A DNA stretch of 63,987 nucleotides, the filler included, from Atractiella rhizophila (lineage: Eukaryota): NCBI GenBank assembly GCA_021432655.1. It is 5 parts of 4 records of this genome, joined end to end, with 100 filler letters (N's around TTAATTAATTAA, not from the genome) between each part and the next. Parts side by side here need not be neighbours in the genome. Positions count along the whole stretch, not along the records: positions 30,924 to 43,532 come from MU271277.1; 4 more parts are not named here. One strand, given 5' to 3'. The stretch's first letter is position 1. Every line of letters begins with the position of its first letter. Below are positions 5,065 to 62,276 of the stretch, in pieces. The position numbers and the translations under genes were made by a program. The notes below the pieces were generated by a model. The model made no database searches and was not told where the DNA came from. It saw only the letters and a list, made by a program, of their open reading frames with translations.

Positions 5065-6629
<1,565 letters not shown>

Positions 6630-6733
6630 TAGCAGTCAGATTGATGGTTGGCGGTGCCGTCCTTCCTCTGGAAACTACATACCATTTTGGTGCCATACAT
6701 TGAAAAATGATAATTAGGGTTTGTAACGGGCAC

Positions 6734-7761
6734 ATGATGGGATCATCAAGGATGGTCTATGGGACATCTACAACGACATTCACATGGGCAACTGGTCCGT
6801 TTCTTATTTCACTGTCTCCCTTCTAGGCTAAGATGTCGGCTATAACAGCGCTGAAGAGACAGCAAAGAAGTATTCCATCACACGGGAAGATCAAGATAAT
6901 TTCGCCATCGAATCATACTCTCGTTCCACGAAGGCCTGGGCAGCAGGAGTTTACAAGAACGAGATCGTGCCAGTGACGATCCCTGACCCGCGGAAGGGAG
7001 ATGTCGAGGTTGTAGAGGATGAGGATTACAGCAAGCTGAAGCTCGACAAGATCAAGACTCTCAAACCCGTCTTCCAGAAGAACGGTGGAACCGTCACCGC
7101 TGCCAACGCGTCGAATCTCAACGATGGCGCCTCGGCTCTCGTGTTGGCGACCCAGGCTAAGGCAGACGAGTTGAGCGTGAAGCCGCTCGCTAAGATCATT
7201 GGTTTGTCTATTGTTCAAAGGCTAGAACATCGGCTGATGAAGAATCACTAAATGCAGCATACGCTGATGGCGCTTGCGCACCTATCGACTTCCCTATCGC
7301 TCCTGCGACTGCTTCTATTCCCGCTGCTCTCAAGAAGGCGGGCCTGAAGGCGGAGGACATTAACTTGTGGGAGATCAACGAGGCTTTCTCTGTCGTTGTT
7401 CCGGCTTCTTGCAAGATCCTTGGGATCAGCACGGACAAAATCAACGGTTCGTTTTCGCTCTTGGTGAAAGTCATGTTGTTGAACGTGTCTACGTGGCAGT
7501 GAATGGAGGAGCTGTTGCTCTTGGACACGCTATCGGCAGCTCCGGCAGTAGGATCGTGGTGTCCCTCGTCCACGCACTCAAGCAAGGCGAATATGGTTGT
7601 GCTGCCGTGTGCAATGGAGGTGGCGGATCGAGTGCCATCATCGTTCAGAAACTGTGATAGCAGTCAGATTGATGGTTGGCGGTGCCGTCCTTCCTCTGGA
7701 AACTACATACCATTTTGGTGCCATACATTGAAAAATGATAATTAGGGTTTGTAACGGGCAC
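6734..7761 (+). repeat. Tandem 1028-bp second copy of 5706-6733 (3' part of thiolase plus 3' UTR), lacking the 5' exons
   Basis: Direct alignment at offset 1028. The differences seen are synonymous or intronic. Confidence 0.95.
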
Positions 7762-8072
7762 TATGCTACAGATGCGCACAGCCAGGATGGTACTGCATTT
7801 GGGGTGTAGCTTTCGTTCTTGCAAACTGGAAGCAACAAAAGCTGCGAGGCAAATTGTCTCGGATTCGATAGCCAGAGTCACTTTAAGCCGAAGACGAATT
7901 TCTGGTTGTCTGACAAACCCGGAAGGAGGGTGTTGAGTACGACGTAGAGCAAGATGATTGCTAGTACTAAGAAATAGGAGCTTCTAAGAACCAGCCTTGG
8001 GAAGGGAGGTACCTGCGATAACAAAACAATTGCGTAGAATACAATCCACTAATGAAAGGCTACTAATCTCAA

Positions 8073-29733: not shown

Positions 29734-30823
29734 TTACTTCTTGCTCCTCTTTCTTGGAGCAACGCTTCCTCTCCCTGTTCCTCTCCCAACACTTCGTTTC
29801 CTGTGATACGACCTCCCAGTCCACTTCTTTGTCGCTACTCCTTTGAGCACCTTTCGAGGAGGCGGAGGAGCTTGCTCGAGCCCTATTATATCCCAGTCCT
29901 CTTGCGCACTCGAAGGTTTGAGGACGGAATAGTCTATGCCAAAGAGAGCCTTAAGTCAGCTCTTGCAGTGGATGTTTGGATATGAAGGAATGAGGGTTAG
30001 GGCGTGGAGAAACTCACAAATCGCCCTGGCCGCAGGTGGTAGATCTGAAATATAAGGTCCAACATCCTTGTCGCTCTCCGTTCCCTGAAGCTCCACATCC
30101 ATCTCCTCCTCCTCATCCTCTTCTGTTACCTCCAAGTCCAGCATCTCCGCATCTGTTTCCACACCCTCAGCCATCCTCTCCTTTCCTTTCCCTTTATCCT
30201 TCTTTGACAAAGCAGGAGGAGGAGTCCAATTGAACGCGTGGTGCATCTCTTCTTCCACCCCATCCCGCCTATGCGAAACTGATGCGGAAGTCTTCCGCTT
30301 TCCGTTCCCTTTCTCATTTGTGCGCAATGCACCATGAGCTTGTGTTGATTGTTCGGCTCGAGATTGAGCGTCTAGTTCTTCCACAGCATGACGCTCGATC
30401 TCATCGACGTGAAACTGTTCCCGACTCCATTAACATGCGTCTCGCACAAGAAGAAGCCATAAACCGACTTCTTTATGACACAATGGACACTCCACCAACT
30501 CCTCCTCCCGTCTCCTCTCCTTCCCTTTCTCCTTGGTCTTCCCTCTCGACGTCATCATTAGTCTACTCTTCTCCATCTCCTCCTCTTCAGATGTATCGTC
30601 AAGGTTAACAACCACTCTTTCCGTCTCCTCCACCTCCTTCCTCTTCGGAGGTTCCCTACGAACTGTAAAATGTGGCTTAAATCTCACCCCTAGCTCATCC
30701 TCATCCTCATCCTCAATTTCCTCCCCCTCCCCACTCTCCTCCAAGCCAACCACTCTCAAGTCCCTCCTCCTCTCCTCAACACTCTTCATACCTTTCTTTC
30801 TCCCCACCTTCTCCCTCTCCGCC
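29734..30823 (-). CDS. 3' part of an acidic hypothetical protein with a possible UBZ-like zinc finger; 5' end lost in a gap
   Basis: Spliced VECPLCHKE|FHVDEIERH. Exon limits are approximate. Confidence 0.4.
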
Positions 30824-30923
30824 NNNNNNNNNNNNNNNNNNNNNNNNNNNNNNNNNNNNNNNNNNNNTTAATTAATTAANNNNNNNNNNNNNNNNNNNNN
30901 NNNNNNNNNNNNNNNNNNNNNNN
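30824..30923. other. Artificial contig spacer (N-run with TTAATTAATTAA)
   Basis: Six-frame-stop linker flanked by Ns, identical at four places in the window. Confidence 0.95.
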
Positions 30924-31314
30924 GGCAACTCTTTCTTTTTCGGATGGGGCGTCCCAAAAGACAAAAAGATGGTCCGTCTTCCTCCTTACCTTATTGCACA
31001 CCCTAACAAACACAATTCATTCGATCCACAGGCGTTAAGTTATTACGAGCTCGCAGCGACGCTCGGGGACCCAGACGCGCAACAACAGACCGGATACTGT
31101 TACGCGAACGGGAAGGGGACGAAGGTGGACAAGAAGAAGGCGGCGAGGTATTATCGGATGGCTGTGGCTCAAGGAGCGCAGACTTTTGGCTTGAGTTGGA
31201 TCCATAAGGTGGGTTTTTTCTTCCTCTCTCCCCTCTGATTGCTGTCCTGCTCTCTGTTCGGAGGATAGAGGCTGATTTGATGTTTTTTGCTTGCAGGAGA
31301 AGTACAATGAGTGA
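30924..31314 (+). CDS. 3' end of a Sel1-repeat protein (Dsf2/Nif1-like), partial
   Basis: GNSFFFGWGVPKDKKM|ALSYYELAATLGDPDAQQQTGYCYANGKGTKVDKKKAARYYRMA...GLSWIHK|EKYNE*. Confidence 0.8.
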
Positions 31315-31480
31315 TGGGGTGAAGTGTGGCGTCTTTCTTTTTGATTTTCCTTTCGTTCAAGCTTAGTATATACCCATCATACCCGATCCATCTTCTTCCT
31401 CAGTCAGTCTACATTTACGTCTACCATCTGCTGCATGGTTATTCACTGCTTCCACTTCTGTGCGTCTTAGATGCTTGACC

Positions 31481-32037
31481 TGGTTCAGTCATAGAGAAAG
31501 AGTGCAAAGTACCCTCGATGTCTCGATGTGATTATACATTATCAATCCACCTTTTCGAGTGAATTCGGTACTCTACAACGTGACGAATCGTTTCTCAGTT
31601 CGTGAGTTCAAGGTGATCGGTACATACCCTCGATTCTATACACATGATGGTGGCGAGGGATCATTCTCCGTTCCACAGCTGGTCGTGGACGTAAGTGAGT
31701 ACTAGGAAAAACCGTCAACGGACTGTCGATAGTCGCGAATGAAATGAAATAGGAAGACTGACAACTACTCCTTGATCTCGTTGGGCACGCGGATGACCTT
31801 CTCTCCCATCTCTCTCACCATCCTCTTCTCTTCCTCTATCCTCTCCCTCTCTCCATCCTCCTTTCCCTCAGCTTCCTCCATCTCCTTCACGTCTTCATCC
31901 ACCTCACTCCTACCTCACTCCCTCTTCTTTCCTTTCATCCTCCTTCATGACCACGACAGAGGGACTCGGATGCTCGGCGGAGAGAGAGAGGGAGTGCCGA
32001 TGCGAGCTACAATACGTGCAAATCGATCGGGATGATA
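31481..32037 (-). pseudogene. Left direct repeat: degenerate copy of the 3' end and downstream region of the 42417-43472 gene
   Basis: Aligns colinearly with 42133-42716. It encodes YHPDRFARIVARIG on the minus strand, followed by indels. Confidence 0.9.
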
Positions 32038-32805
32038 GCTATCAGGCTTGTGGATAGAGCGTGTTGACGGGACAGCATGATGAGATTGATCTCGGCTGGA
32101 GCATAGTCACATGATGGGAACCTTAAAATGAAGCAACGGGGAACCGGAAAGGACAGCTGAACGACAACTTGAAAGAACGCAACGAGCCCACACTCATCAA
32201 GTTTCAGAAACTCCAGCCCTCTCAAGTAATCGGAAATATTGGAGCTAGATAGTTGGAGGATAACAGCATCGAGCGAGTATTTTGCCTGAGCTGGAGCGGG
32301 TGAAAGGCGAGATTCAGTATTGTCTCTTTAAGAGGCGAGTATTTACTTGTTTTGTGCAAGAAAAGCAGGAATAGGAGCGATAAGGCCGATCAAGCTTGAT
32401 CGCTTTCGTGAAACTGCTTATCAAAATCGAGGAGGGGCTCTTGCAGTTTGATGCCTTTGAGTGTTACTGCTAGAGGTGGACGTACGTTGAAGTGTTCCAA
32501 AACGCCCTTGTTCCACTGCCCCGTCCCTGAGCTTCCATAGCTTCCATAGCTTCCATAGTTTGCATATGGCTCCAGGGGGACCTGCGGTTTGCAATGTCAA
32601 TGAACTGGCCTGCAGCTTGGCGATCATATCCAAAGTATAAGGTCCCATTGCTGATTCATTTGTTATATGGAACCCGCAGAGAGACAAAGCTGATAACGAG
32701 AAATTAGATTGCAACCATCCCAGGCGCTTTCTTCTTTCTTCAAGTTGATAGCACCATAAAACCATACGGCCCTGTTATTCAACCTTGTTCCGCAATCCAA
32801 AATCT

Positions 32806-33590
32806 TTGTTTCGCTGACATGACTACAAATCCCGTCAATGTATTCAAAGTTCTTGAAAACGTGAAGAGAGCGAATCCGCTGGGACTACGAATCCTCTGCA
32901 TAGACAATGGAGGCGTCGGCACTTTTTCAGCTCCCTACATGCTCGAACCCATCATGCGTCAAGCCGCACAACTTCTCAACGTTCCAGAGGACGAAGAGCT
33001 TCGACCTTGCGACGTCTTTGATCTCATTTGTGGAACTTCTACCGGCGGATGGATCGCACTTCTGCTGGGGAGGCTGGGAATGACCGTTCGTCAGTGCATT
33101 GCGGCATATGAAGAGATTGTGAGCAACGTCTTTCGAGACGAGGATTCAGACGCTAGCGGCGCGTTCATGTTCTCGGCGGAGAAGCTCGAAGAGACTCATT
33201 GTTTCGCTGACATGACTACAAATCCCGTCAATGTATTCAAAGTTCTTGAAAACGTGAAGAGAGCGAATCCGCTGGGACTACGAATCCTCTGCATAGACAA
33301 TGGAGGCGTCGGCACTTTTTCAGCTCCCTACATGCTCGAACCCATCATGCGTCAAGCCGCACAACTTCTCAACGTTCCAGAGGACGAAGAGCTTCGACCT
33401 TGCGACGTCTTTGATCTCATTTGTGGAACTTCTACCGGCGGATGGATCGCACTTCTGCTGGGGAGGCTGGGAATGACCGTTCGTCAGTGCATTGCGGCAT
33501 ATGAAGAGATTGTGAGCAACGTCTTTCGAGACGAGGATTCAGACGCTAGCGGCGCGTTCATGTTCTCGGCGGAGAAGCTCGAAGAGACTC
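32806..33590 (+). repeat. Apparently identical in-frame tandem duplication (393-bp period) of the NLR 5' end
   Basis: 32806-33197 matches 33199-33590, with ATGs at 32819 and 33212. Confidence 0.93.
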
Positions 33591-36500
33591 TGATTGCCAT
33601 TATCCAGCGACACACGCAATCTGCCGAAGATTCGGCCAAGTCGCTTCCAATGAAGGACCCTTCTCTAGAGCACAGATGCAGAACCCTCGTTCTATCCGCC
33701 TATCAGGCTACTGTTGTCGTTTCTACGGAGATGCGCACTTACGATATTGGTGGATCTGGCCCTCGCATCGCTTGTCCATATTCCGTGTGGGAAGCCGCAA
33801 GAGCCACCTCGGCTCATCCTCCCTTCTTTGCTCCTATGAGCAAGGACTCTACAGGCTACGTCCAGCTAGGTGACAACAACCCTGCAGCAGTAGCTTTGGA
33901 CGAGGCCATGCGTATTTGGGGTCGCAGCAATGAGATTGCTTGTCTTTTGTCTCTTGGTCCAGGCGTTACACGCGCCGTCAAGCCGGGCCACACTCGGGAT
34001 GATGTTGAACATGCGTTGAAGGCGATACTCGCAGATTGCTCAAAGGTTTCGACGGCCGTGAAGGAGAAGATGCAATTTGGTGGGATGGGCCATTGCTATC
34101 ATCGATTCTCGGTTGATACATTCGGAGGCTGCAAATGGGAGGACTGGGAGCGAAAGGAGGATGTTGTAGGCTGCACAAAGGCTTACATGGAAGCAATGAA
34201 TTATGAAGTGGTCGCCGTGGCTAAATCGCTCGTCCAAGGTATTCTCCATGACTGCATGTTGCTTCACGCTGACGTCCCCTTGTTCAGAATTTAAGGAACG
34301 CATTGCAGTACGCAGGAAGCTCCCGTTACCTCCTCCAGGGGCTTGTTACGGAAGAGGTGACGAAGTTACGGACGCGCTCAACTGCATCCTCACTGACCGC
34401 AAGCATCTTGCAATCATCGGTGGGGCTGGGAATGGGAAGTCTACTGTGGCTCTACAAGTTCTGCATGCCAAGGAAGTCAAAGATGCTTTCACAAGCACAG
34501 CGGAAGGTACCAGGCAAGATCTTCGGTTCTGGGCAAGTTGCGACGCTTTGACTACATTTTCATCCCTCTCCACGAGCCTTTGCAGACAGGTCTTCGGGAT
34601 AGCTCCTCTACCTACCGAAAGCGAACTTGCTGCTGTCGCAAGATATTTCAGCAGTCACAGATGTCTCCTTGTCTTAGACAATTTTGAGACCCCTGCGGAA
34701 TGCGACAAGGAAAACCTGCAGCCATTCTTTCAAGCTCTTCTTTCTGGCAACAATGAGTTGGGTTCCATCCTCATTGTGGCACACCGAGGTTATCAGGCCT
34801 ATCGGGTGAACGTCACAGGAGGGAAGTTTCAAAGTGTGGTGATCAGCGGCCTCAGCGACCACGGTGCACTGGAATTCTTCACGGAGGCGTACACGGGAGA
34901 AGAGGATTGTACAGAAGAGCTACTCAAGACTGTTTTCACCGCACTGGATCATCACACCTTGTCCATCAAGCTATTTGTTCTTCGTGCCAACGCAGAATCT
35001 CCCAGGAGAGTGTCGGCCCTGTTGAAGGAGTGGGAAGCGGTGAAGATAGGTGTGTTGTGGGACAAAGATAGTGACGAAACCCCAACTCTTAAGAAGTCAA
35101 TATATTTTTCACTTAGTTCACATCGTCTTAAAATGCATGAGGATATGAGCATGTTTATTCTTGCTCTCTTATCCTGGACCCCTCAAGGCCTTCTGGACAG
35201 TGACATTCGGGCTATTGTGAACAAGGCCTCTCTTCCTTCTCTGGAGCAACCTTATGTGATCATTAATGCGATTTTGTGCGTCGGACTCGCTGAGAATGCA
35301 TACGATACCCTGGCAGACTCAACACGATTTCGCATGCTGGCACCTATTCGTGAACACATTAATCACTTGGTCCTGCACTCTCTTCCTCCTTTCAACAATG
35401 CTGTTGCTTCATCCCTCCAGCCCGTAACGGACGTTCTTATCGATGTAGCTCGGGAAAATGTTCGGCGGTATAAATATGAAGGTGAACGGATAGGGTTGCT
35501 GACATTCCGCAGGGATTATCCAAACATTGAATATGTTCTTCTGGCTGCTTTGGAACATCTCCAAGACAAGACAGTTACAGTCCATTTTCTAGTGGAAATG
35601 TGGCAATTTCTCTACCAGCAGAGCCTCCTCTCAATCAAATTACTCCAGCAGGCTCTGTCCATCGCGAAATCTATAAGTTCTCCACTGGAATTTACAGCTA
35701 TTTTGACCAAGGCTCTGGGGCTTGCATTCAGACATCAGGGGACTCTAAAACAGGCCATGAAACGATTTGAGGAGGCGAAGGAGCTGTATCTGAAGGTGGA
35801 AGACAAGCAGGGGCAAGCCCACTGCATTCGGAGCATGGGGGAGATTGAGCAGCGTCACGGGCGGATGGAGGAAGCGCTGAAACAATTTGAGGAGGCAAAG
35901 GAGCTGTATCTGAAGGTGGATGATCAGCAGGGGCAAGCCCACTGCATTCGGAGCATGGGGGAGATTGAGCAGCGTCATGGGCGGATGGAGGAAGCACTGA
36001 AACGATTTGAGGAGGCAAAGGAGCTGTATCTGAAGGTGGAAGACAAGCAGGGGCAAGCCCACTGCATTCAGAGCATGGGGAAGATCGAGCAGCGTCACGG
36101 GCGGATGGAGGAAGCACTGAAACGATTTGAGGAGGCGAAGGAGCTGTATCTGAAGGTGGATGATCAGCTGGGGCGAGCCCACTGCATTCACAGCATGGGG
36201 GAGATTGAGCAGCATCACAGGCGGATGGAGGAAGCACTGAAACGATTTGAGGAGGCGAAGAAGCTGTATCTGAAGGTGGACGATCAGCTGGGGCAAGCCC
36301 ACTGCATTCACAGCATGGGGGAGATTGAGCAGTATCATGCACGGATGGAGGAAGCGCTGAAACGATTTGAGGAGGCAAAGGAGCTGTATCTGAAGGTGGA
36401 AGACAAGCAGGGGCAAGCCCACTGCATTCGGAGCATGGGGGAGATTGAGCAGCGTCACGGGCGGATGGAGGAAGCGCTGAAACAATTTGAGGAGGCAAAG

Positions 36501-38198
36501 GAGCTGTATCTGAAGGTGGATGATCAGCAGGGGCAAGCCCACTGCATTCGGAGCATGGGGGAGATTGAGCAGCGTCATGGGCGGATGGAGGAAGCACTGA
36601 AACGATTTGAGGAGGCAAAGGAGCTGTATCTGAAGGTGGAAGACAAGCAGGGGCAAGCCCACTGCATTCAGAGCATGGGGAAGATCGAGCAGCGTCACGG
36701 GCGGATGGAGGAAGCACTGAAACGATTTGAGGAGGCGAAGGAGCTGTATCTGAAGGTGGATGATCAGCTGGGGCAAGCCCACTGCATTCACAGCATGGGG
36801 GAGATTGAGCAGCATCACGGGCGGATGGAGGAAGCACTGAAACAATTTGAGGAGGCAAAGGAGCTGTATCTGAAGGTGGAAGACAAGCAGGGGCAAGCCC
36901 ACTGCATTCGGAGCAGGGGGAAGATCGAGCAGCGTCACGGGCGGACGGAGGAAGCGCTGAAACGATTTGAGGAGGCAAAGGAGCTGTATCTGAAGGTGGA
37001 AGACAAGCAGGGGCAAGCCCACTGCATTCACAGCATGGGGAAGATTGAGCAGCGTCACGGGCGGATGGAGGAAGCGCTGAAACGATTTGAGGAGGCGAAG
37101 GAGCTGTATCTGAAGGTGGATGATCAGCAGGGGCAAGCCCACTGCATTCACAGCATGGGGGAGATTGAGCAGTATCACAGGCGGATGGAGGAAGCACTGA
37201 AACGATTTGAGGAGGCGAAGAAGCTGTATCTGAAGGTGGACGATCAGCTGGGGCAAGCCCACTGCATTCACAGCATGGGGGAGATTGAGCAGCGTCATGG
37301 GCGGATGGAGGAAGCACTGAAACGATTTGAGGAGGCAAAGGAGCTGTATCTGAAGGTGGAAGACAAGCAGGGGCAAGCCCACTGCATTCGGAGCATGGGG
37401 AAGATCGAGCAGCGTCACGGGCGGATGGAGGAAGCACTGAAACGATTTGAGGAGGCGAAGGAGCTGTACCTGAAGGTGGATGATCAGCAGGGGCAAGCCC
37501 ACTGTATTCGGAGCATGGGGGAGATCGAGCAGCATCACGGGCGGATGGAGGAAGCACTGAAACGATTTGAGGAGGCAAAGGAGCTGTATCTGAAGGTGGA
37601 AGACAAGCAGGGGCAAGCCCACTGCATTCGGAGCATGGGGAAGATCGAGCAGCGTCACGGGCGGATGGAGGAAGCGCTGAAACGATTTGAGGAGGCAAAG
37701 GAGCTGTATCTGAAGGTGGATGATCAGCAGGGGCAAGCCCACTGCATTCGGAGCATGGGGGAGATTGAGCAGCGTCACTGGCGGATGGAGGAAGCGCTGA
37801 AACGATTTGAGGAGGCGAAGAAGCTGTATCTGAAGGTGGAAGATGTCGGAGGTCAACTCAACTGTCTTATCGGCATGAGTTCCATTTACGCTCAAGACCG
37901 GCAGGGCATGTCGGAGGCGATCAAGCTTTGCGAGCAAGCAGTCAATTTGAGTAAGACAGTCGGTGGCTACTACGAAGCTGTCAGCAGAGAAGCCCTGGCC
38001 AAATGCCTCTTCCAATCATCCCAGTTCTACCATGCGTCAGAGGAAACCACTCTCGCCCGTCAGATTTATGCAGATTGTTCTGCCAGCTCCGAAGTTGATG
38101 ATTGTGACACTCTACTGCAGGTGATTCAGCTCATTGAGAGTTTGCAAACGTCGTCAAAATCGTTTTGTACTTTCCCTTCTCTCCTCTTTGTAAGCTGA
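32819..38198 (+). CDS. Fungal NLR: patatin-like domain, NB-ARC and TPR array (PLP-1-type architecture)
   Basis: Patatin motifs ILCIDNGGVG, FDLICGTSTGG, ARATSA.P.FF and NNP. A 49-nt GT..CTGAC..CAG intron at 34239-34287 joins it in frame to NB-ARC (CYGR, GGAGNGKST Walker A, LLVLDNFE Walker B), followed by 40-aa TPR repeats. The 3' end may be spliced. Confidence 0.93.
35761..37843 (+). repeat. Coding tandem array of 17 complete 120-bp units plus a partial unit (40-aa TPR)
   Basis: Exact 120-bp period. Consensus KRFEEAKELYLKV(E/D)D(K/Q)QGQAHCIRSMGEIEQRHGRMEEAL. Confidence 0.98.
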
Positions 38199-38303
38199 CC
38201 TCCCAGTGCAGGATGTAATACTTGCCTAAGCAACACTTTTATCCATCATAAAATCGATGCTTTGATTACAATCTGAAATGTAAACACGATCCTCCTGATC
38301 TAG

Positions 38304-39946
38304 AAAGCTATATGCTTTTTACACGAGGTTGGGTCGTGTGTTCATGAGACAAGATCCCTAGGATTAGCGTTCAAGCTACAGAGGGATCTCCAACAGGCAC
38401 TAAAGCACCTTGAGGATGCTAAGGAGCTCTATCACCAGGTGGAAGATCAGCGGGGTGAAGCCCATTCCATTCGTGGCATAGAGGAGATCGAGCAATATCA
38501 GAGGAGAAAGAAGGAAGCACTCATGCAGTTCGAGAAAGCGAAGCAGCTGTATGTGAAGATAGGAGATAGGCTAGGGGAGGCACGCTGCGGAAGCAGCGTG
38601 GCAGAGATCAGCAACCATTGTACACAGAAGGAGGAAGCTTCGAAATAGTTTGAGGTAGCAAAACAGATGTATCTGAATGTGAAAGATCGACTAGGCCTGG
38701 CCCACTGGGCCTTCAGCATTGGGGAGATTGAATGGTTTCGTGGGCAGATTAGTGAAGCGCTGGAACATTTTAAGGAGGCAAAAGAGCTCTATCTGAAGGT
38801 AGGGAACCGATATGGGCAAGCTGCTTGCAATCACAAATTGGGGGAGATTAAGTGGCTGCATGGGCGGAATGAGGAAGCGCTGAAACTTTGGGAGGAGGCA
38901 AGGCAGCTGTATGAGGAAGCGAAGGATCAGGATGGCCAAGCACACTGCATTCGCAGCATAGGGAATGTAGAGTTCCAGCGTGGGGGGAATGAGGAAGCAC
39001 TGAAACATTTCAAAGCAGCAAACTCTCTCTATATGTGGCTGGAAGATTGGCAAGGCCAAGCCCACTGTACTTATGGCATCGTGGAGATCGAGGCATTGCG
39101 TGGGCAGAGTGAGGAAGCACTGAAACACCTTGGACAGGCCAAGGCGTTTATTTATTGGCAGATGATCAACTTGGTGTTGCTCAATCAATTCATCTCGTGG
39201 GGATTGTGAAGCTGCTTTGTAGGCAGAATGAGAAAGAGCAGAAATGGTTTGAGGAGGCAAAGGATCACTATGTGAAATTGGAAGATCAACAGGGCCAAGC
39301 CCACTGTATTCGTGACATAGGGAGGACCAAGCTGCTTCATGGGCAGAATGAGGAAGCTCTGTTACAGTTTGAGGAGGCAAAGCGACTGTATCAGTGTGAG
39401 GAAGATAAGCAAGGTCTAGCCAGCTGCCTTCGGTTCATAGGGGAGATTGAGCTGATTTACCGGCGTAACGAGGATGCGCTACAACATTTCAAGGAAGCAA
39501 AGGGGTTCTATCTTCAGACAGAAGATCCGCATGGTCAAGCCACTTGCATTCAAGGTATAGGGAAGATCAAGCAGCTTTATGCACAGACTGAGGAAGCACT
39601 GAAAAACTTTCAGGAGGCGAAGGAGCTTTTTGTAGTGGCTGAAGATCTGGGAGGTCAACTCAGCTGCCTTATAAACATAGGTCAGGTTTATACTCAAGAC
39701 TGCCAGATTTCCAAGGCGATTGAGGTTTATGAGGTAGCCGTGATTTTGAGTAGTGCAATTGGTGGCCACAATGAAGCTCGTCGCAGGAAGTCTCTTGCCC
39801 TAGCTCTCTTCCTATCATCTCAGTACTCCCGCGCTAGAGAGGAGTTTATTCTTGCCCGTCAATGCTTCGCTGATTGTTTGATATATTCCGAAGTACATGA
39901 TTGTGATGATTGGCTTCACAGGATTGATCAGGTGGGCTTCCAATAG
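38304..39946 (+). pseudogene. Headless paralogous TPR cassette (about 10 diverged 40-aa repeats with N- and C-caps), one stop and one frameshift
   Basis: TRSLGLAFKLQRDLQQALKHLEDAKELY matches TKALGLAFRHQGTLKQAMKRFEEAKELY of the NLR, and the C-cap GGQLSCLI...SEVHDCDDWL matches GGQLNCLI...SEVDDCDTLL. TAG at 38646-38648; frame change near 39150. Confidence 0.88.
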
Positions 39947-42132
39947 TTTAGTATATGTCCTTTCACACCACCTTATGCTCGCTAACATCATTTAGGAGAA
40001 TGCAAGCAATGCTGTCATCTGGAGCAAATACTGGATGTCTGGTTCATGCCTTTTAGGATGAGTGATGAAGTAATGTTACCTGCTCCTCGGCACTCTGCCA
40101 TTTCAAGGAGTTTTTGACAAAATATATGTTTGTATGCTTGGCATTGCTAAAACAACAAATACCTTGCACCAAACAATTCTGAAATCATTTTATAGCCTCT
40201 ACTATTATTCCTCTGGAATGGCACTGTTCTATCAGTCCAGCACTGCAACCAGTACAGTATATGGGTATGGCCGTAAAAATACTGGCAGTATCCACCATTT
40301 CCAATGCGGTAGGCATATGGACAACCTTATAACATCAGCTCAGTCTCTTAATACTGGTGCCGTATATGTGGTAATGGAATATCATATATTTCAAGCTTCC
40401 GAGAACCCACCCAAATTACCATTTCTTTGGCTTCTTGACACCTCACATCTGCCATGCCTTTGACATCATGGTTTCAGCAAGGGTGGATGTGTTAGGGCTG
40501 ACACTATGTGGGGTCGCCGACGGGCGATGCGTCTGTATTGGAGGTAAACCTAAGAGAATAGTATGGCATGAGAAGACTAACCTGTAGTGGAGGTAAACCT
40601 AAGAGAATACTCTGAGGTCACCACCACTACATCTCGATGTATATTACATATGTAAAGGCACTGCCATAAACCATAACATATGTTGCTTGAAACGTGCAAG
40701 ATAGCTGGATCAGGAAAGTAATAAAGGGAATACTCGGAAATAAGATATACTGGGTAGTACTAGTGCGAAAGGACAATAAGGCGAAAATGGAGACGGTGCA
40801 GACCGGCGAAAATGTATAAGGTTTGCTAAGCGGCGATTCGTGTGAGAAATGGGAAAGCGGAACAGTGCAGACATATGCAGAGCGGCGATGGTAGGCACGT
40901 GATCTCATGACGTGGTGAAGTAGGTCACGTGACTTCAAATGGTGCATTTCGGTAATGCGTAGGGGCAAGCCTGACATGTGTTTGACACAGCGAAAAAACA
41001 GATGCTGGAAAGTGAGAGTTTTTTGGATGCTTGGACGTTGGCTGAGTGCAGAGCCTCGTGGCTGATCATAAGGCAACTTTAAAAAAGTGAAAGTGCCATC
41101 CAGAAAAAGTGATGGCGTTTTTGAACAGGCCTACTAGGTGGGAGTGTAGGGTGAGAATTGGCAAATTAAGGTGAACAAGGGAGTTGTACATGGGGCCTGG
41201 GGCCTGAGATGGCATCGTAGAAGCTAAGAATGTGTTTGCAAGACTTCTTGAGCTCATAGAACGTCTGGAAGGCTTGGGATGGAAAACGGACCACTCACTG
41301 ACCATTCAGCCCTGCCTGCTTCCAGCCTATTCCAGCCGTTTCATCCGTCAGAACCGTCTTCAGAAGGATGTTGGCAGCAGACAGATGGGATTCTGCCATC
41401 CGTTTTCCCCATCCATCTCAGGAGTTGAAAGTCTGCGACGGTGATGGGACGGTTTGGCTACAAAAGCTGTCTGCCCCGGTACAAAGCCCTATATAGCTTA
41501 CAGCAGTGGCAACTGGAAAGCAGTAGAACATTCCAGAAAACTAAGGAACTTTTGCCGCCGAGTGGCTCGAAACTAGACTGCAAAATCTGACAGTTTCATT
41601 GGCCAATGCGCTTACTTCTTCGTGGACACCGTTCAAAACATGTTTTTACGGTCACAATCTCACTCTCAGATGTACACTGTGAGCTGGATCCCANNNNNNN
41701 NNTGGAATGCAATGGAAAAACATACCTGGATCCCAGTGAAGTGTGAGATGGTGGAAAAACCGCTGGGGATCCAGGTGTCCAAGAGACAAACAAAAGCAAG
41801 CACACTGGTCACATGCTAGTAACGTGACTGTGGCTAAGAAAGACAGGGATGTGCGACGTGGGCTGAGAGACAACGAGCATCCAGCTCTCAGACATGATGA
41901 GGAAGTTCATGAAAAGATAACGGTGGTGCAATTGTTCCTCTCAACAGATACCCCTTGCAACACTGGCCAAGGATACTGCAGTTCTTGCATGCCTTCCTTT
42001 TGGAGCTCTTTACCGACATACGGTTCGTCTATCTTATTCTGTCGCTGCTATGAGCAGAGATTGATTTAAGATTGCGAGGACGCAGGCTTCCTCGTAACCA
42101 TCGTCTACTGGACCATACTCTCCGACAACTCT

Positions 42133-42716
42133 TGGTTTCAGTCATAGAGAAAGAGTTCAAAGTACCCTCGATGTCTCGATGTGATTATACATTTTCAATC
42201 CACCATTTCGAGTGAATTCGGTACTCTACAAAGTGACAAACCGTTCTCAGTTTGTGAGTTCAAGGTGATCGGTACATACCCTCGATTCATACACATGATG
42301 ATGGCGATGGATCATTCTCCGTTCCACAGCTGGTCGTGGACGTTAAGTGAGTACTAGGAACAACCGTCAACGGACTGTAGACAGCTACGAATGGTATGAA
42401 ATAGGAAGACTGACCACTACTCCTTGACCTCGTTGAGCACGCGGATCACCTTCTCTCCCATCTCTCTCACCATCCTCCTCTCTTCCTCTATCCTCTCCTC
42501 CTCTGTCCTCTCCTCCTCTATCCTCTTCCTCTCTCCATCCTCCTTTTCCTCAGCTTCCTCCATCTCCTCATCCACGTCTTCATCCTCCTGTCTCACATCT
42601 CCCTCTTCTTTCCTACCGTCTTCCTTCATGACCACGACAGAGGGACTCGGATGCGTGCTGGAGAGACAGGGAGCGCCGATGCGAGCTACGATACGTGCAA
42701 ATCGATCGGGGTGATA
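42133..42716. repeat. Right direct repeat (3' end and downstream region of the intact gene)
   Basis: Colinear match to 31481-32037. Confidence 0.9.
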
Positions 42717-43472
42717 AGTCCTCCTGGCCTCTCTCAAGACACGCTTCCTCTCCTCCTTCCCCAGCCCATGAAACAGAAAGTGGGATATGTTGACTCGTGT
42801 GAGCGAGGAGAGGGTTGGGGGAAGAGAGAAGGTGATAGGCCACGGCACATCTTCTGGAAGCAAGGGCTTTGATGAAGTCGAAGACGAAGTGACCAGTAGA
42901 GAAGCCCAAGACGCGGCATAGGAAGCTCTCTCCTTCTTCAAGTCATCAAACATCTCCTCCATCTCCTCCCTCCTCCTCTCTTCCTCTCTCTTCCTCTTCC
43001 TCTCCTCCCTCGCCCCCCTCTCCTTCCTCTCCCTCTCCTCCCTCTCCTCCTCCATAACCCTCCTCCTCCTCGCCTCCTCCTCCCTAACCCTCCACCGCTC
43101 CTCCATCCTCCTCCTCCTCTCCCTCTCCCCCTTCCCTCCCCTCCCTCCCAACTCAACCTCCAAAAGCCCCTCGACAAACCGCCTCCTCTCACTCTCCTCG
43201 TAAAACATCTCCTCCAACATACCCTCCTCCGCCTCTCCTTCCACCATCTCCTCTTCTCTCTCCCGTTGGTTCACCTCGAATGATGCAGGGAGGGACAAAT
43301 CGTGCCCTCGTGTAGCGGAGAACGCGTGCGGGCCGCGGGGGACGAAGGTGTAGGAGTGGGTGTTGGAGTGGTTTGCACGTGCACGGCGATGTGAGGATGA
43401 GGACGAGGATGATGCGGAGGGAGCTTTCTTCATTCGGAGACGCCCGGGACGAGGGAGGGAGTCAGCGTCCAT
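42417..43472 (-). CDS. Hypothetical charged coiled-coil protein with an NFKBIL1-like C-terminal (V/I)PWP...HPD(K/R)F domain
   Basis: 351-aa ORF with an E/R-rich middle, DVPWP and VLREARRTYHPDRF. Confidence 0.65.
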   Translation of the reverse strand: MDADSLPRPGRLRMKKAPSASSSSSSSHRRARANHSNTHSYTFVPRGPHAFSATRGHDLSLPASFEVNQREREEEMVEGEAEEGMLEEMFYEESERRRFVEGLLEVELGGRGGKGERERRRRMEERWRVREEEARRRRVMEEEREERERKERGAREERKRKREEERRREEMEEMFDDLKKERASYAASWASLLVTSSSTSSKPLLPEDVPWPITFSLPPTLSSLTRVNISHFLFHGLGKEERKRVLREARRTYHPDRFARIVARIGAPCLSSTHPSPSVVVMKEDGRKEEGDVRQEDEDVDEEMEEAEEKEDGERKRIEEERTEEERIEEERRMVREMGEKVIRVLNEVKE

Positions 43473-43532
43473 CGTTGTTGTTGCCGTTTAGTTCTAGTGG
43501 CCTGTTCCTGGTAAAGTAACGTAAGTCGTGGT

Positions 43533-43632
43533 NNNNNNNNNNNNNNNNNNNNNNNNNNNNNNNNNNNNNNNNNNNNTTAATTAATTAANNNNNNNNNNNN
43601 NNNNNNNNNNNNNNNNNNNNNNNNNNNNNNNN
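43533..43632. other. Artificial contig spacer
   Basis: N-run with TTAATTAATTAA. Confidence 0.95.
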
Positions 43633-44970
43633 CACCTCATCCAGAAACCACAGTGGGAGCGGCAGAAGTCGACCAGCTTATAGCCAGCAGCGGAGGAGAA
43701 GTCCCCTCGATAGTGGTCGCCCTCCTCGACATCACTAGTCAGTCTAATGTAGGTGTCGCTTCCTTCCATTGCGCGGACGTCGACGATCAGGACTTCGTTC
43801 GGTACAACTTAGACAACACCACCTGTATGACCACCGGCTTAATCTTCTTTTCTTCAGATAGAACTTTATTCAGTTACTGATAACTATGCGTACGTGTCTC
43901 AAGAGCTCCATGCTGATGGCCAACCACGTCGACCCATGAATGCTTTTATGGTTTGTCGGTTCAATTACTCCTTAACATCCATATTGATACACCATGACAG
44001 ATCTTCGCACGACATCGACGACCTACCATCCAGAAACGAGAGCCGGGACTGAAGACGGGCGAGATTAGCAAACGTTTGAGCGCAGAATGGAAGAGTATGA
44101 CGGATGTACGTCCTCCCTCTCGATCTAATTCCTCAACTCATTGTTCAACAGACCGATAAGCGCTTTTACCTCGAGCAAGCGAAGCGCCTCAAAGATAATT
44201 TCCATGAGAAGTATCCTGACTACGTCTACCGACGCAAAGCAGGCAAGCCTAAGAGGAAGAGGGGTGGAAGTCAAGGAGATCCTTCGAGCCCTGAAACCGG
44301 CAATGCCCCTGATGGCGATCTATCTCCCGTCTTGGGTCCCAAGCATGATCAGCGATCTGATATGTCAAATCTCCTCCAACCGGCCTCTGGCTATCACAAT
44401 CCCATCACTTCCTACAATACGGGGGACGCTCTGCGGTCTGGACTCAACTCAGCACCGTACCGCTCTTACGCATACCCGTATCCATCCTGGTCATCAGGTG
44501 CTCCTACCGCCTATGGCTCAGGTTACCGCCCGAACGCCTACTCGAGTTCGACGATGTCGCCGTTCTCCAGCCAATCTACTACATCAGGATCGTCATTCCC
44601 ATCCATGGAGTCGCACTCGCTCGGTGCAAGTCCAGCCAGTTCGACCTACCATGCTGGGTTCTCGACCTCGCCTTCAGTGGGATACGGCAGTGGTTCCCAC
44701 CAAAACACTTCAGGTTCTGGAGGATATAATACACAGCCTCCTACCACCACTGCCGCGTATCCAACTTCTCAGTATTATCCAACTTATCCTTACGGCACGG
44801 GCACGGGCTCTTCGTATCCATCAAATTATCAACCATCTGCAGGTCCTCAGTCGTCGAACCAACCGCAATACAGGAGCTCTTACGGTTCGTCGTCCAGCTT
44901 CTCATCCAACTATCCCCCTTCTCGTCAACCTGCAACGGACAAGAAAGAAAAAGAGACAAAACCGAATTGA
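43633..44970 (+). CDS. Sequence-specific HMG-box (SOX/MATA_HMG type) transcription factor, 5' partial, multi-exon
   Basis: Spliced PRRPMNAFM|IFARHRRPTIQKREPGLKTGEISKRLSAEWKSMTD|TDKRFYLEQAKRLKDNFHEKYPDYVYRRK, followed by an S/Y/P/G-rich tail. Confidence 0.9.
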
Positions 44971-60349: not shown

Positions 60350-60449
60350 NNNNNNNNNNNNNNNNNNNNNNNNNNNNNNNNNNNNNNNNNNNNTTAATTA
60401 ATTAANNNNNNNNNNNNNNNNNNNNNNNNNNNNNNNNNNNNNNNNNNNN
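60350..60449. other. Artificial contig spacer
   Basis: N-run with TTAATTAATTAA. Confidence 0.95.
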
Positions 60450-62176: not shown

Positions 62177-62276
62177 NNNNNNNNNNNNNNNNNNNNNNNN
62201 NNNNNNNNNNNNNNNNNNNNTTAATTAATTAANNNNNNNNNNNNNNNNNNNNNNNNNNNNNNNNNNNNNNNNNNNN
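62177..62276. other. Artificial contig spacer
   Basis: N-run with TTAATTAATTAA. Confidence 0.95.

Follow-up and report, generated by a model that had tools for sequence, protein, structure and literature searches.

The window analysed here, a stretch of 63,987 nt of Atractiella rhizophila DNA, holds a gene for a nucleotide-binding oligomerisation domain (NOD)-like receptor (NLR) and, directly behind it on the same strand, a second sensor module that lacks a head. The gene (32819-38198) is a working-looking NLR that combines a patatin-like phospholipase domain, a P-loop NOD, and a C-terminal sensor of tetratricopeptide repeats (TPRs), and the headless cassette (38298-39946) would be a sensor module left orphaned by another lineage of this family, one that diverged long ago. 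In the explanation favoured here, to which we give somewhat better than even credence, the cassette is the sensor of a lost paralogue, or the gene's own displaced old sensor, and was recently orphaned by one rearrangement. The sequence data show the anatomy of the locus, the depth of the divergence between the two sensors, coding constraint on the cassette in the past, an absence of tracts common to both arrays, and a premature stop codon in the cassette that varies between samples; a rearrangement, in one or other of two forms, and the present silence of the cassette are inferred.

The cassette and the gene ahead of it

A preliminary description of the locus had drawn attention to a same-strand copy of only the sensor about 100 nt after the NLR stop; that it called the sensor of the NLR itself 'expressed' is an assumption. 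Such a module is present at 38298-39946 on the plus strand, on which all features described below lie unless otherwise stated, and blastn aligns it with the active sensor over 1521 nt at 69% identity (E 6e-164), a likeness far above chance. In order, it contains a cut linker, 11 units of which the N-cap unit is the first, and a C-cap that runs to the native stop. The match from the N-cap helix onwards (TRSLGLAF at 38349, TKALGLAF at 35706) is as described earlier, but the homology already begins about 50 nt further upstream, at ~38298, in mid-helix of the linker. Alignment and translation mark this stretch (38298-38348) as a truncated linker remnant, homologous to 35655-35705 and containing an in-frame TAG at 38301-38303. 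The array (38349-39667) keeps the 40-amino acid (aa) period attributed to it, though its diverse TPR units, numbered C01 (the N-cap) to C11 (the last), are 11 rather than 'about 10'. Its lesions lie where they had been placed, an in-frame TAG at 38646-38648 in C03 and, for the frameshift put at ~39150, a 1-nt deletion at 39144-39146 in C07 that leaves this unit 119 nt long; the TAG of the linker comes in addition. The open reading frame (ORF) of the cassette matches Pfam TPR_12 in three pieces (E 5.8e-07, 4.5e-27, and 1.2e-16). Its units are as diverse as had been reported, with a mean mutual aa identity of 0.40 and a maximum of 0.50, and the structural residues A17, F21, A24, Y28, D33, G36, A38, and C40 are kept in every interior unit, including those after the frameshift. 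Single-sequence structure prediction of the second half of the cassette gives helical hairpins throughout, at a low mean predicted local distance difference test score (pLDDT) of 50.8.

The cassette ends, again as first described, in a C-cap like that of the active gene, the last unit and C-cap together being 52% identical in aa sequence between the two modules. The cassette C-cap, delimited by aa alignment and by distance from the DCD motif, spans 39668-39946 and closes with a TAG at 39944-39946; this stop is taken as native because its position relative to the DCD motif equals that of the Atractiella protein P0122. Conserved terminal introns at 38121-38211 and 39932-39995 were considered and dropped: read without splicing, the sequences line up with the C-termini of Atractiella proteins, and the cassette stops where P0122 does. 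The first in-frame ATG of the cassette does not occur before unit C02, and its frame is that of the active sensor modulo 3 (38349 - 35706 = 2643). The cassette has neither patatin nor NB-ARC, as had been noted, and tblastn found no patatin or NOD remnant elsewhere in the 64-kb window (best stray E 0.084); blastn likewise found no further cassette copy there, leaving one cassette only. Between the two modules lies a spacer of ~99 nt (38199-38297) that has no counterpart beside the cassette end in the alignments and presumably represents sequence flanking the active gene on its 3' side.

ORFs, Pfam, and repeat finders are concordant on the active gene, which runs in the order patatin, P-loop NOD, 18 TPR units, and C-cap. 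Exon 1 (32819-34238) encodes the patatin-like phospholipase domain, identified as PF01734 within ORF 32708-34294 (E 5.4e-23; 82.6 bits vs a cut-off of 27.7). The same exon carries a 393-nt head-to-tail duplication, 32803-33197 and 33196-33590 (Tandem Repeats Finder (TRF) period 393, 2.0 copies, 100%; megablast 99.7%), in which the ATG and first 131 codons are repeated in frame; either it arose very recently, in which case it would disrupt the effector domain, or it is an artefact of assembling a heterozygous sample. A predicted 49-nt intron (34239-34287; GTATTC ... CTGAC ... CAG) leads from the patatin frame into the NOD frame, its GT-AG pair reconciling the frame change between ORFs 32708-34294 and 34200-38198, and the joined patatin-NOD reading matches the Atractiella rhizophila homologue P0001 around '...SL.Q ... 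R..RKLPLPPP'. The NOD, an NB-ARC/NACHT-like signal transduction ATPase with numerous domains (STAND), extends together with the helical linker to the sensor over 34288-35705, as placed by Pfam and homology. A Walker A motif, GxxGxGKS, is visible in its translation; Pfam scores NACHT at 26.1 bits, just below the cut-off of 26.7, and AAA_22, AAA_16, and nSTAND3/6 weakly. The region is 41% identical (E 2e-103) to P0001, its best homologue, and 25-30% identical to Mycena proteins carrying PF00931, and homology to PF00931 and PF05729 proteins is clear. By these matches the NOD is assigned to the STAND class, its type being left between NB-ARC and NACHT.

The active sensor (35706-37865; TRF and register) comprises 18 TPR-like units of 120 nt or 40 aa, from A01, the N-cap unit, to A18, the last. 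TRF reports a period of 120 with 17.4 copies and 92% matches, and Pfam TPR_12 is found in nine stretches (E 2.3e-95). Units A02-A17 (640 aa) have a mean aa identity of 0.89 and a minimum of 0.75, mean nt identity across A02-A18 is 92%, and variation touches 12 of the 40 aa positions; the variable nt columns divide into 20 that change the amino acid and 11 that are synonymous only. Identity between units is highest at shifts of 5 and 8 (0.949 and 0.960, vs 0.923-0.936 elsewhere), peaks that point to recent unequal exchange within the array. The active unit lies near the family consensus and is 72% identical to one Atractiella unit. On the minus strand, at 35728-38015, two antisense ORFs of 709 and 756 aa traverse the array, where GC skew is +0.32 to +0.36; they are most likely by-products of repeat composition, not genes. 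The C-cap and C-terminal tail (37866-38198) end the gene with a TGA at 38196-38198.

Divergence and coding history of the cassette

At the positional homologues of the two modules (N-cap unit, last unit, and C-cap; 164 codons), synonymous divergence (dS) is 1.12 and non-synonymous divergence (dN) 0.32, with their ratio, omega, estimated at 0.28 by NG86 and 0.55 by YN00. In the C-cap region, the active gene is 42-56% and the cassette 37-49% identical to four Atractiella sequences (the cassette 45-49% to P0048, P0122, and P0139), comparable values which imply that the modules split from one another about as long ago as from the Atractiella rhizophila homologues. Judged by these alignments, the cassette is no recent copy of the active sensor, and the paralogy is old. 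Its units have no unit-by-unit correspondence to the Atractiella array, and all 11 are closer to some active unit than to any other cassette unit, which we read as likeness to the family consensus, not as exchange. A relative-rate test with four outgroups assigns 13-23 unique changes to the cassette and 8-14 to the active module (chi2 <=3.67, not significant).

Throughout 546 codons the cassette holds one premature stop; neutral evolution would add 0.75-0.84 stops with each 1% of divergence, and the remaining five frames of the stretch contain 14-41. A silent period equal to half of the Jukes-Cantor distance (0.43) predicts ~17 stops (P(<=1) = 7e-7), and one equal to half of dS ~44 (P(<=1) = 3.5e-18); the 95% upper bound on its neutral time is ~6% divergence. 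Lesions in proportion to divergence and a dN/dS near 1, the marks of a neutral pseudogene, are not what the cassette presents, a statement on its long-term history that excludes the last ~1% of divergence. Neutral decay with dN/dS near 1 had been named in the preliminary description as a finding that would speak against its proposal; omega of 0.28-0.55 and one stop against at least 17 expected contradict such decay. Its suggestion that coding constraint lasted until recently is borne out by the same figures, obtained at a dS of ~1.1, and by the reading of the premature stop as CAG in another sample. Frame and substitution pattern together show the cassette to have been under coding constraint, and presumably translated, for nearly all its history.

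Three sequencing runs independent of the window cover part of the locus, X1 and X2 deriving from one sample and X3 being labelled as another organism. Contigs were aligned to 37800-41690 only, the long tandem array being excluded, with 1027 records for X1, 1555 for X2, and 55 for X3. Those of X1 and X2 carry full-depth differences from the window in ~1% of positions, which marks them as another strain or haplotype set. At 38646 the single covering contig reads C in X1 (172.9 of 172.9) and in X2 (248.9 of 248.9), giving CAG and not TAG: the premature stop is polymorphic. With one stop in 546 codons, and that one absent from another sample, the cassette would thus have coded until very recently, or would still code in some haplotypes. 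Window-like contigs (records 5 and 14) cross the frameshift site gap-free and confirm the 1-nt deletion. The cassette differences listed number 15, six synonymous and nine non-synonymous, and at four of the latter (38646, 38708, 39327, and 39329) the other sample has the repeat-family consensus and the window does not; the three neighbouring differences at 39327-39329 are drawn from as many as four contigs, and paralogues may account for part of them. Joints such as 37844 to 39560 or 39641 were rejected as recombinants, being derived from contigs of 80% likeness and read as paralogous TPR arrays. X3 has 25% of the sampled 31-mers of 32600-40400, yet almost nothing at 99% likeness in 37800-41690; its shared words may fall in the 2.1-kb array, in which case another organism would possess repeat units almost identical to these.

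Origin of the headless module

Under recent orphaning, a single rearrangement would have removed or displaced the head of the cassette by one of the two simplest routes: either a downstream tandem paralogue lost its patatin-NOD part by deletion, or a new sensor, complete with stop and 3' flank, was inserted ahead of the gene's old one. Linker homology that starts in mid-helix, together with the lack of a head remnant in 64 kb, suggests a random-looking breakpoint and not an exon border. The event would be so recent that only one premature stop, polymorphic at that, and one 1-nt deletion have accrued, and the active array would diversify by itself, via unequal exchange among its near-identical units, with the cassette taking no visible part. 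Contig depth reveals a very high-copy repeat (40400-41050, strand not assigned) ~450 nt downstream of the cassette, with a summed depth of 27,000-174,000 in X1 and 39,000-439,000 in X2 vs ~200-300 nearby, loose ends at 40490, 40630, 40811, and 40890, and an internal direct repeat, GGAGGTAAACCTAAGAGAATA, that occurs twice. It belongs to no Rfam family, none being found across 30000-44000, and has no Pfam match; it may have been the agent of the rearrangement.

Several observations weigh against this explanation. The rearrangement is deduced from this one locus, not observed through a related genome with a head-bearing or NOD-joined cassette, and a frame so close to intact is just as compatible with a cassette that continues to code in some haplotypes. 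A half-depth contig at 39070-39389 (records 4 and 13), 321 nt against 320 with 23 differences and 1 gap, may be an allele without the frameshift or a paralogue. The 6:9 split of synonymous and non-synonymous differences fits neutrality or weak constraint alike, and among the records listed, with the divergent contig excluded, the window-like cassette contigs have 7 differences in 961 nt where the 398 nt of the downstream non-coding contig have 10 and a further 16 gap letters (Fisher p 0.013), which is weak evidence. In-frame GT-AG pairs lead from the end of the active gene into the cassette, the phase-0 donors at 38121 and 38190 (GTAAGC, 5/6 to consensus) sharing a frame with acceptors at 38303 and 38327. 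Four Atractiella models, moreover, are themselves headless, consisting of TPRs and a C-cap: P0031 (KAH8930767), P0048 (KAH8923568), P0122 (KAH8915806), and P0139 (KAH8929414). They could make such modules a maintained feature.

Much of this would follow if the cassette still codes, as a second TPR module or alternative 3' exon spliced past the stop at 38196, or as a separate TPR-only gene, its lesions being haplotype-specific; we consider this unlikely. It would account for a frame almost intact despite a dS of ~1.1, for the TAG that is CAG in another sample, for the possible allele with one extra base over the frameshift site, for the lower rate of differences in the cassette than in its flank, for the agreement of the two frames modulo 3, for the in-frame donors and acceptors, and for the annotated Atractiella models. 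The splice signals into the cassette are weak, however. No CTRAY motif lies 8-45 nt ahead of the acceptor put forward in the preliminary description, ...CTGATCTAG with its end at 38303, and the acceptor at 38327 is a GAG, whereas the gene's one well-supported intron is 49 nt long with CTGAC 15 nt ahead of its CAG; 11 donors and 4 acceptors are enough for some pairs to agree in frame by chance; and a splice from NOD to cassette needs an intron of ~2.6 kb, the in-frame donors there matching GTAAGT at 2-3/6. The cassette also begins in the middle of a linker helix, after an in-frame TAG, with no in-frame ATG ahead of C02, the other sample's gap-free window-like contigs have the 1-nt deletion as well, and the Atractiella models may be annotation fragments. 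That the locus is a two-sensor NLR, its second, long-diverged sensor parked frame-compatible behind the stop and kept open by selection in at least some haplotypes, is quite unlikely. If it were true, the receptor could present either a homogeneous, fast-evolving or a diverse, stable TPR array, the switch being made either at the 3' end, through alternative splicing or processing, or by deleting the intervening part in register in a single step, and the headless Atractiella models would be further two-sensor instances.

A profile-free search of 1.84 billion representatives returned 21,946 proteins at E <= 0.001, of which the best match and three short matches reaching the C-cap are all from Atractiella rhizophila, as are 6 of the 16 proteins looked up by name. 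The four headless models resemble the cassette in their 40-aa unit type and C-cap (37-49% identity to the last cassette unit and C-cap); all four start within a TPR unit, without a NOD, and could represent either additional sensor modules that lack a head or pieces of NLR genes annotated wrongly. A hidden Markov model of the C-cap run against 303 stored proteins gave strong full-length matches only in the four Atractiella proteins from which it was built, a circular result, and weak ones in all TPR proteins; among the matches listed, none has an internal C-cap followed by a further array. One metagenome scan gave 69 pattern matches and no relative, a second a single locus among 432 matches (L001, 32% identity), and a short-protein search for fragments of the other allele yielded 27 candidates, none of which scored.

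The preliminary description had proposed that the cassette could be a donor, a silent module that feeds variants into the active array by gene conversion or unequal crossover; in another form of this idea, an unequal crossover that joins in register a unit of each array would delete the stop and create a chimeric sensor. We hold this to be improbable. The modules do agree in strand, period, and frame, so that an in-register crossover stays in frame, and active variants at positions 32-35 (EDKQ, DDQQ, DDQL) recur in C09, C08, and C07, which are closest to those subtypes. Runs of 17 nt, furthermore, link three of nine interior cassette units to the active array, a length near the ~95th-99th percentile under a simple null that keeps per-column match rates (95th percentile 16, 99th 18), and repeat exchange among highly conserved fungal NLR repeats is documented in passages of PMC13449251. 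Against a donor role, the best unit-to-unit identity is 74%, and no higher for any of the 11 cassette units. The DNA blocks common to both arrays on which the proposal drew do exist, but they are no longer than 17 nt and within the null range, the longest exact word (17 nt, in four places) lying within conserved EEALK / FEEAK / QAHC codons, and the common EDKQ, DDQQ, and DDQL residues are written in different synonymous codons, which suggests that they are old. Homologous recombination drops steeply with divergence, and ~31% is far beyond its tolerance. The exchanges documented in the same passages use identical repeats of highly conserved arrays, not a partner diverged by 31% (PMC13449251). 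With one cassette in 64 kb in place of an archive of several, the compared sequences give no sign that the cassette feeds the active array.

Diversification from silent cassettes occurs in the Borrelia vlsE, Neisseria pilS, and trypanosome variant surface glycoprotein systems, in chicken pseudo-V genes, and in lamprey variable lymphocyte receptors. The present locus is like these in its promoter-less, headless copy of a variable module on the same strand beside an expressed gene, and unlike them in having one cassette, no tracts in common with the expressed copy, and homology blocks of at most 17 nt at 31% divergence; there is no evidence of switching here.

Misassembly, by which a paralogous or allelic sensor was misjoined behind the gene, is very improbable. 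It might be suspected from the two tandem duplications in the window, 5702-6736 / 6730-7765 (98.5%) and 32803-33197 / 33196-33590 (99.7%), from several N runs, from a sample that looks heterozygous (differences at 99 of 197 depth), and from the end, at 38305, of the X2 contig that crosses the spacer, just at the start of cassette homology. That 246-nt contig (38060-38305) runs, without gaps, from the active C-cap through the spacer into the first bases of the cassette region; its 4 differences show that it is not the window's own data, yet it joins the same three elements, at a two-haplotype depth of 288.6 vs ~250-285 for comparable contigs. The cassette contigs, too, are at two-haplotype depth, not half, so that the cassette is more than just a second allele of the active sensor, and the spacer and cut linker are unique sequence. 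The preliminary description had also allowed for a decaying duplicate of an ancestral sensor, and although the missing head and start codon, the stop and frameshift, and a slightly longer cassette branch in the relative-rate test would suit an old partial duplicate decaying in place as a silent pseudogene since its origin, long neutral decay of this kind is scarcely credible against 17 to 44 expected stops with 1 seen (P 7e-7 or less), an omega of 0.28-0.55, TPR structural residues intact in all interior units, and a retained native stop.

Elsewhere in the window, Pfam identifies housekeeping genes (LEU1, thiolase, NOL10, kinesin, dynamitin, chitin synthase, Tfb4, and Lon). The LEU1 piece reaches no more than 66-67% identity to proteins of the Pucciniomycotina. 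The duplication at 5702-7765 is a head-to-tail repeat of ~1030 nt within the thiolase gene, with two ORF pieces of identical Thiolase_N score; its 98.5% identity is close to the ~1% difference between window and other sample and suggests two haplotypes laid in tandem. Pairs of 44-N runs 12 bases apart occur four times (30824-30923, 43533-43632, 60350-60449, and 62177-62276), and N runs are also found at 434-948 (515 N) and 41694-41702 (9 N).

Known fungal receptors and the meaning of the locus

The architecture of patatin, NOD, and TPRs is described in passages of PMC13449251 and PMC4986451, and the active gene shares its three parts (patatin, P-loop NOD, C-terminal TPRs) with PaPLP1 (het-z) of Podospora anserina and the patatin NLR of an incompatibility locus in Cryphonectria parasitica. 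It differs from these in its basidiomycete host, probably of the Pucciniomycotina, and its 40-aa repeat unit, and the passages describing the two loci mention no headless second sensor behind the stop. High internal conservation (HIC) has been defined as >85% identity over >=100 aa (Dyrka et al. 2014, PMC4986451), and the active array, at a mean of 89% aa identity across 16 units, falls with the HIC NLRs (the WD40 proteins HET-E/HET-D/HET-R/NWD, and HIC TPR and ANK arrays), which it also resembles in its few variable positions and its higher-order repeats pointing to unequal crossing-over. The cassette, at a mean of 0.40, lies outside that definition. Exchange partners of HIC arrays are, in the passages of PMC13449251, other HIC arrays with identical repeats, whereas the neighbour here is of low conservation and has no tract in common with the active array.

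NLR remnants have been reported from Podospora, among them nwdp-2 and 'pseudogenized remains of NWD relatives' (PMC13449251). The cassette, an NLR fragment with few lesions and a polymorphic stop, is comparable in that some Podospora genes, too, are intact or broken according to strain, though the Podospora examples in the passages that describe them are mostly mutated by repeat-induced point mutation (RIP), unlinked, or whole-gene pseudogenes. The cassette, by contrast, comprises a sensor module only, complete and placed in a tandem that keeps the frame compatible, 100 nt after an intact NLR from which it is separated by a dS of ~1.1. No headless sensor module behind a fungal NLR was found described in literature titles, abstracts, and passages, which is not proof that none has been.

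Phylogenies show many swaps of the sensor domain, relative to the NOD, in the history of fungal NLRs, and the passages of PMC13449251 and PMC4986451 that report this do not describe the genomic steps. The present locus may show one such step just after its occurrence: a complete sensor with its own stop stands between the NOD and a second complete sensor, which would have been translated until about the last percent of divergence. A highly conserved and a poorly conserved array of one repeat type, adjoining each other, also offer a natural comparison of two evolutionary regimes. If the cassette turned out to be transcribed, or to have an open frame in the majority of haplotypes, the locus would represent a new kind of two-sensor receptor; if not, it would be an unusually clean and datable NLR relic.

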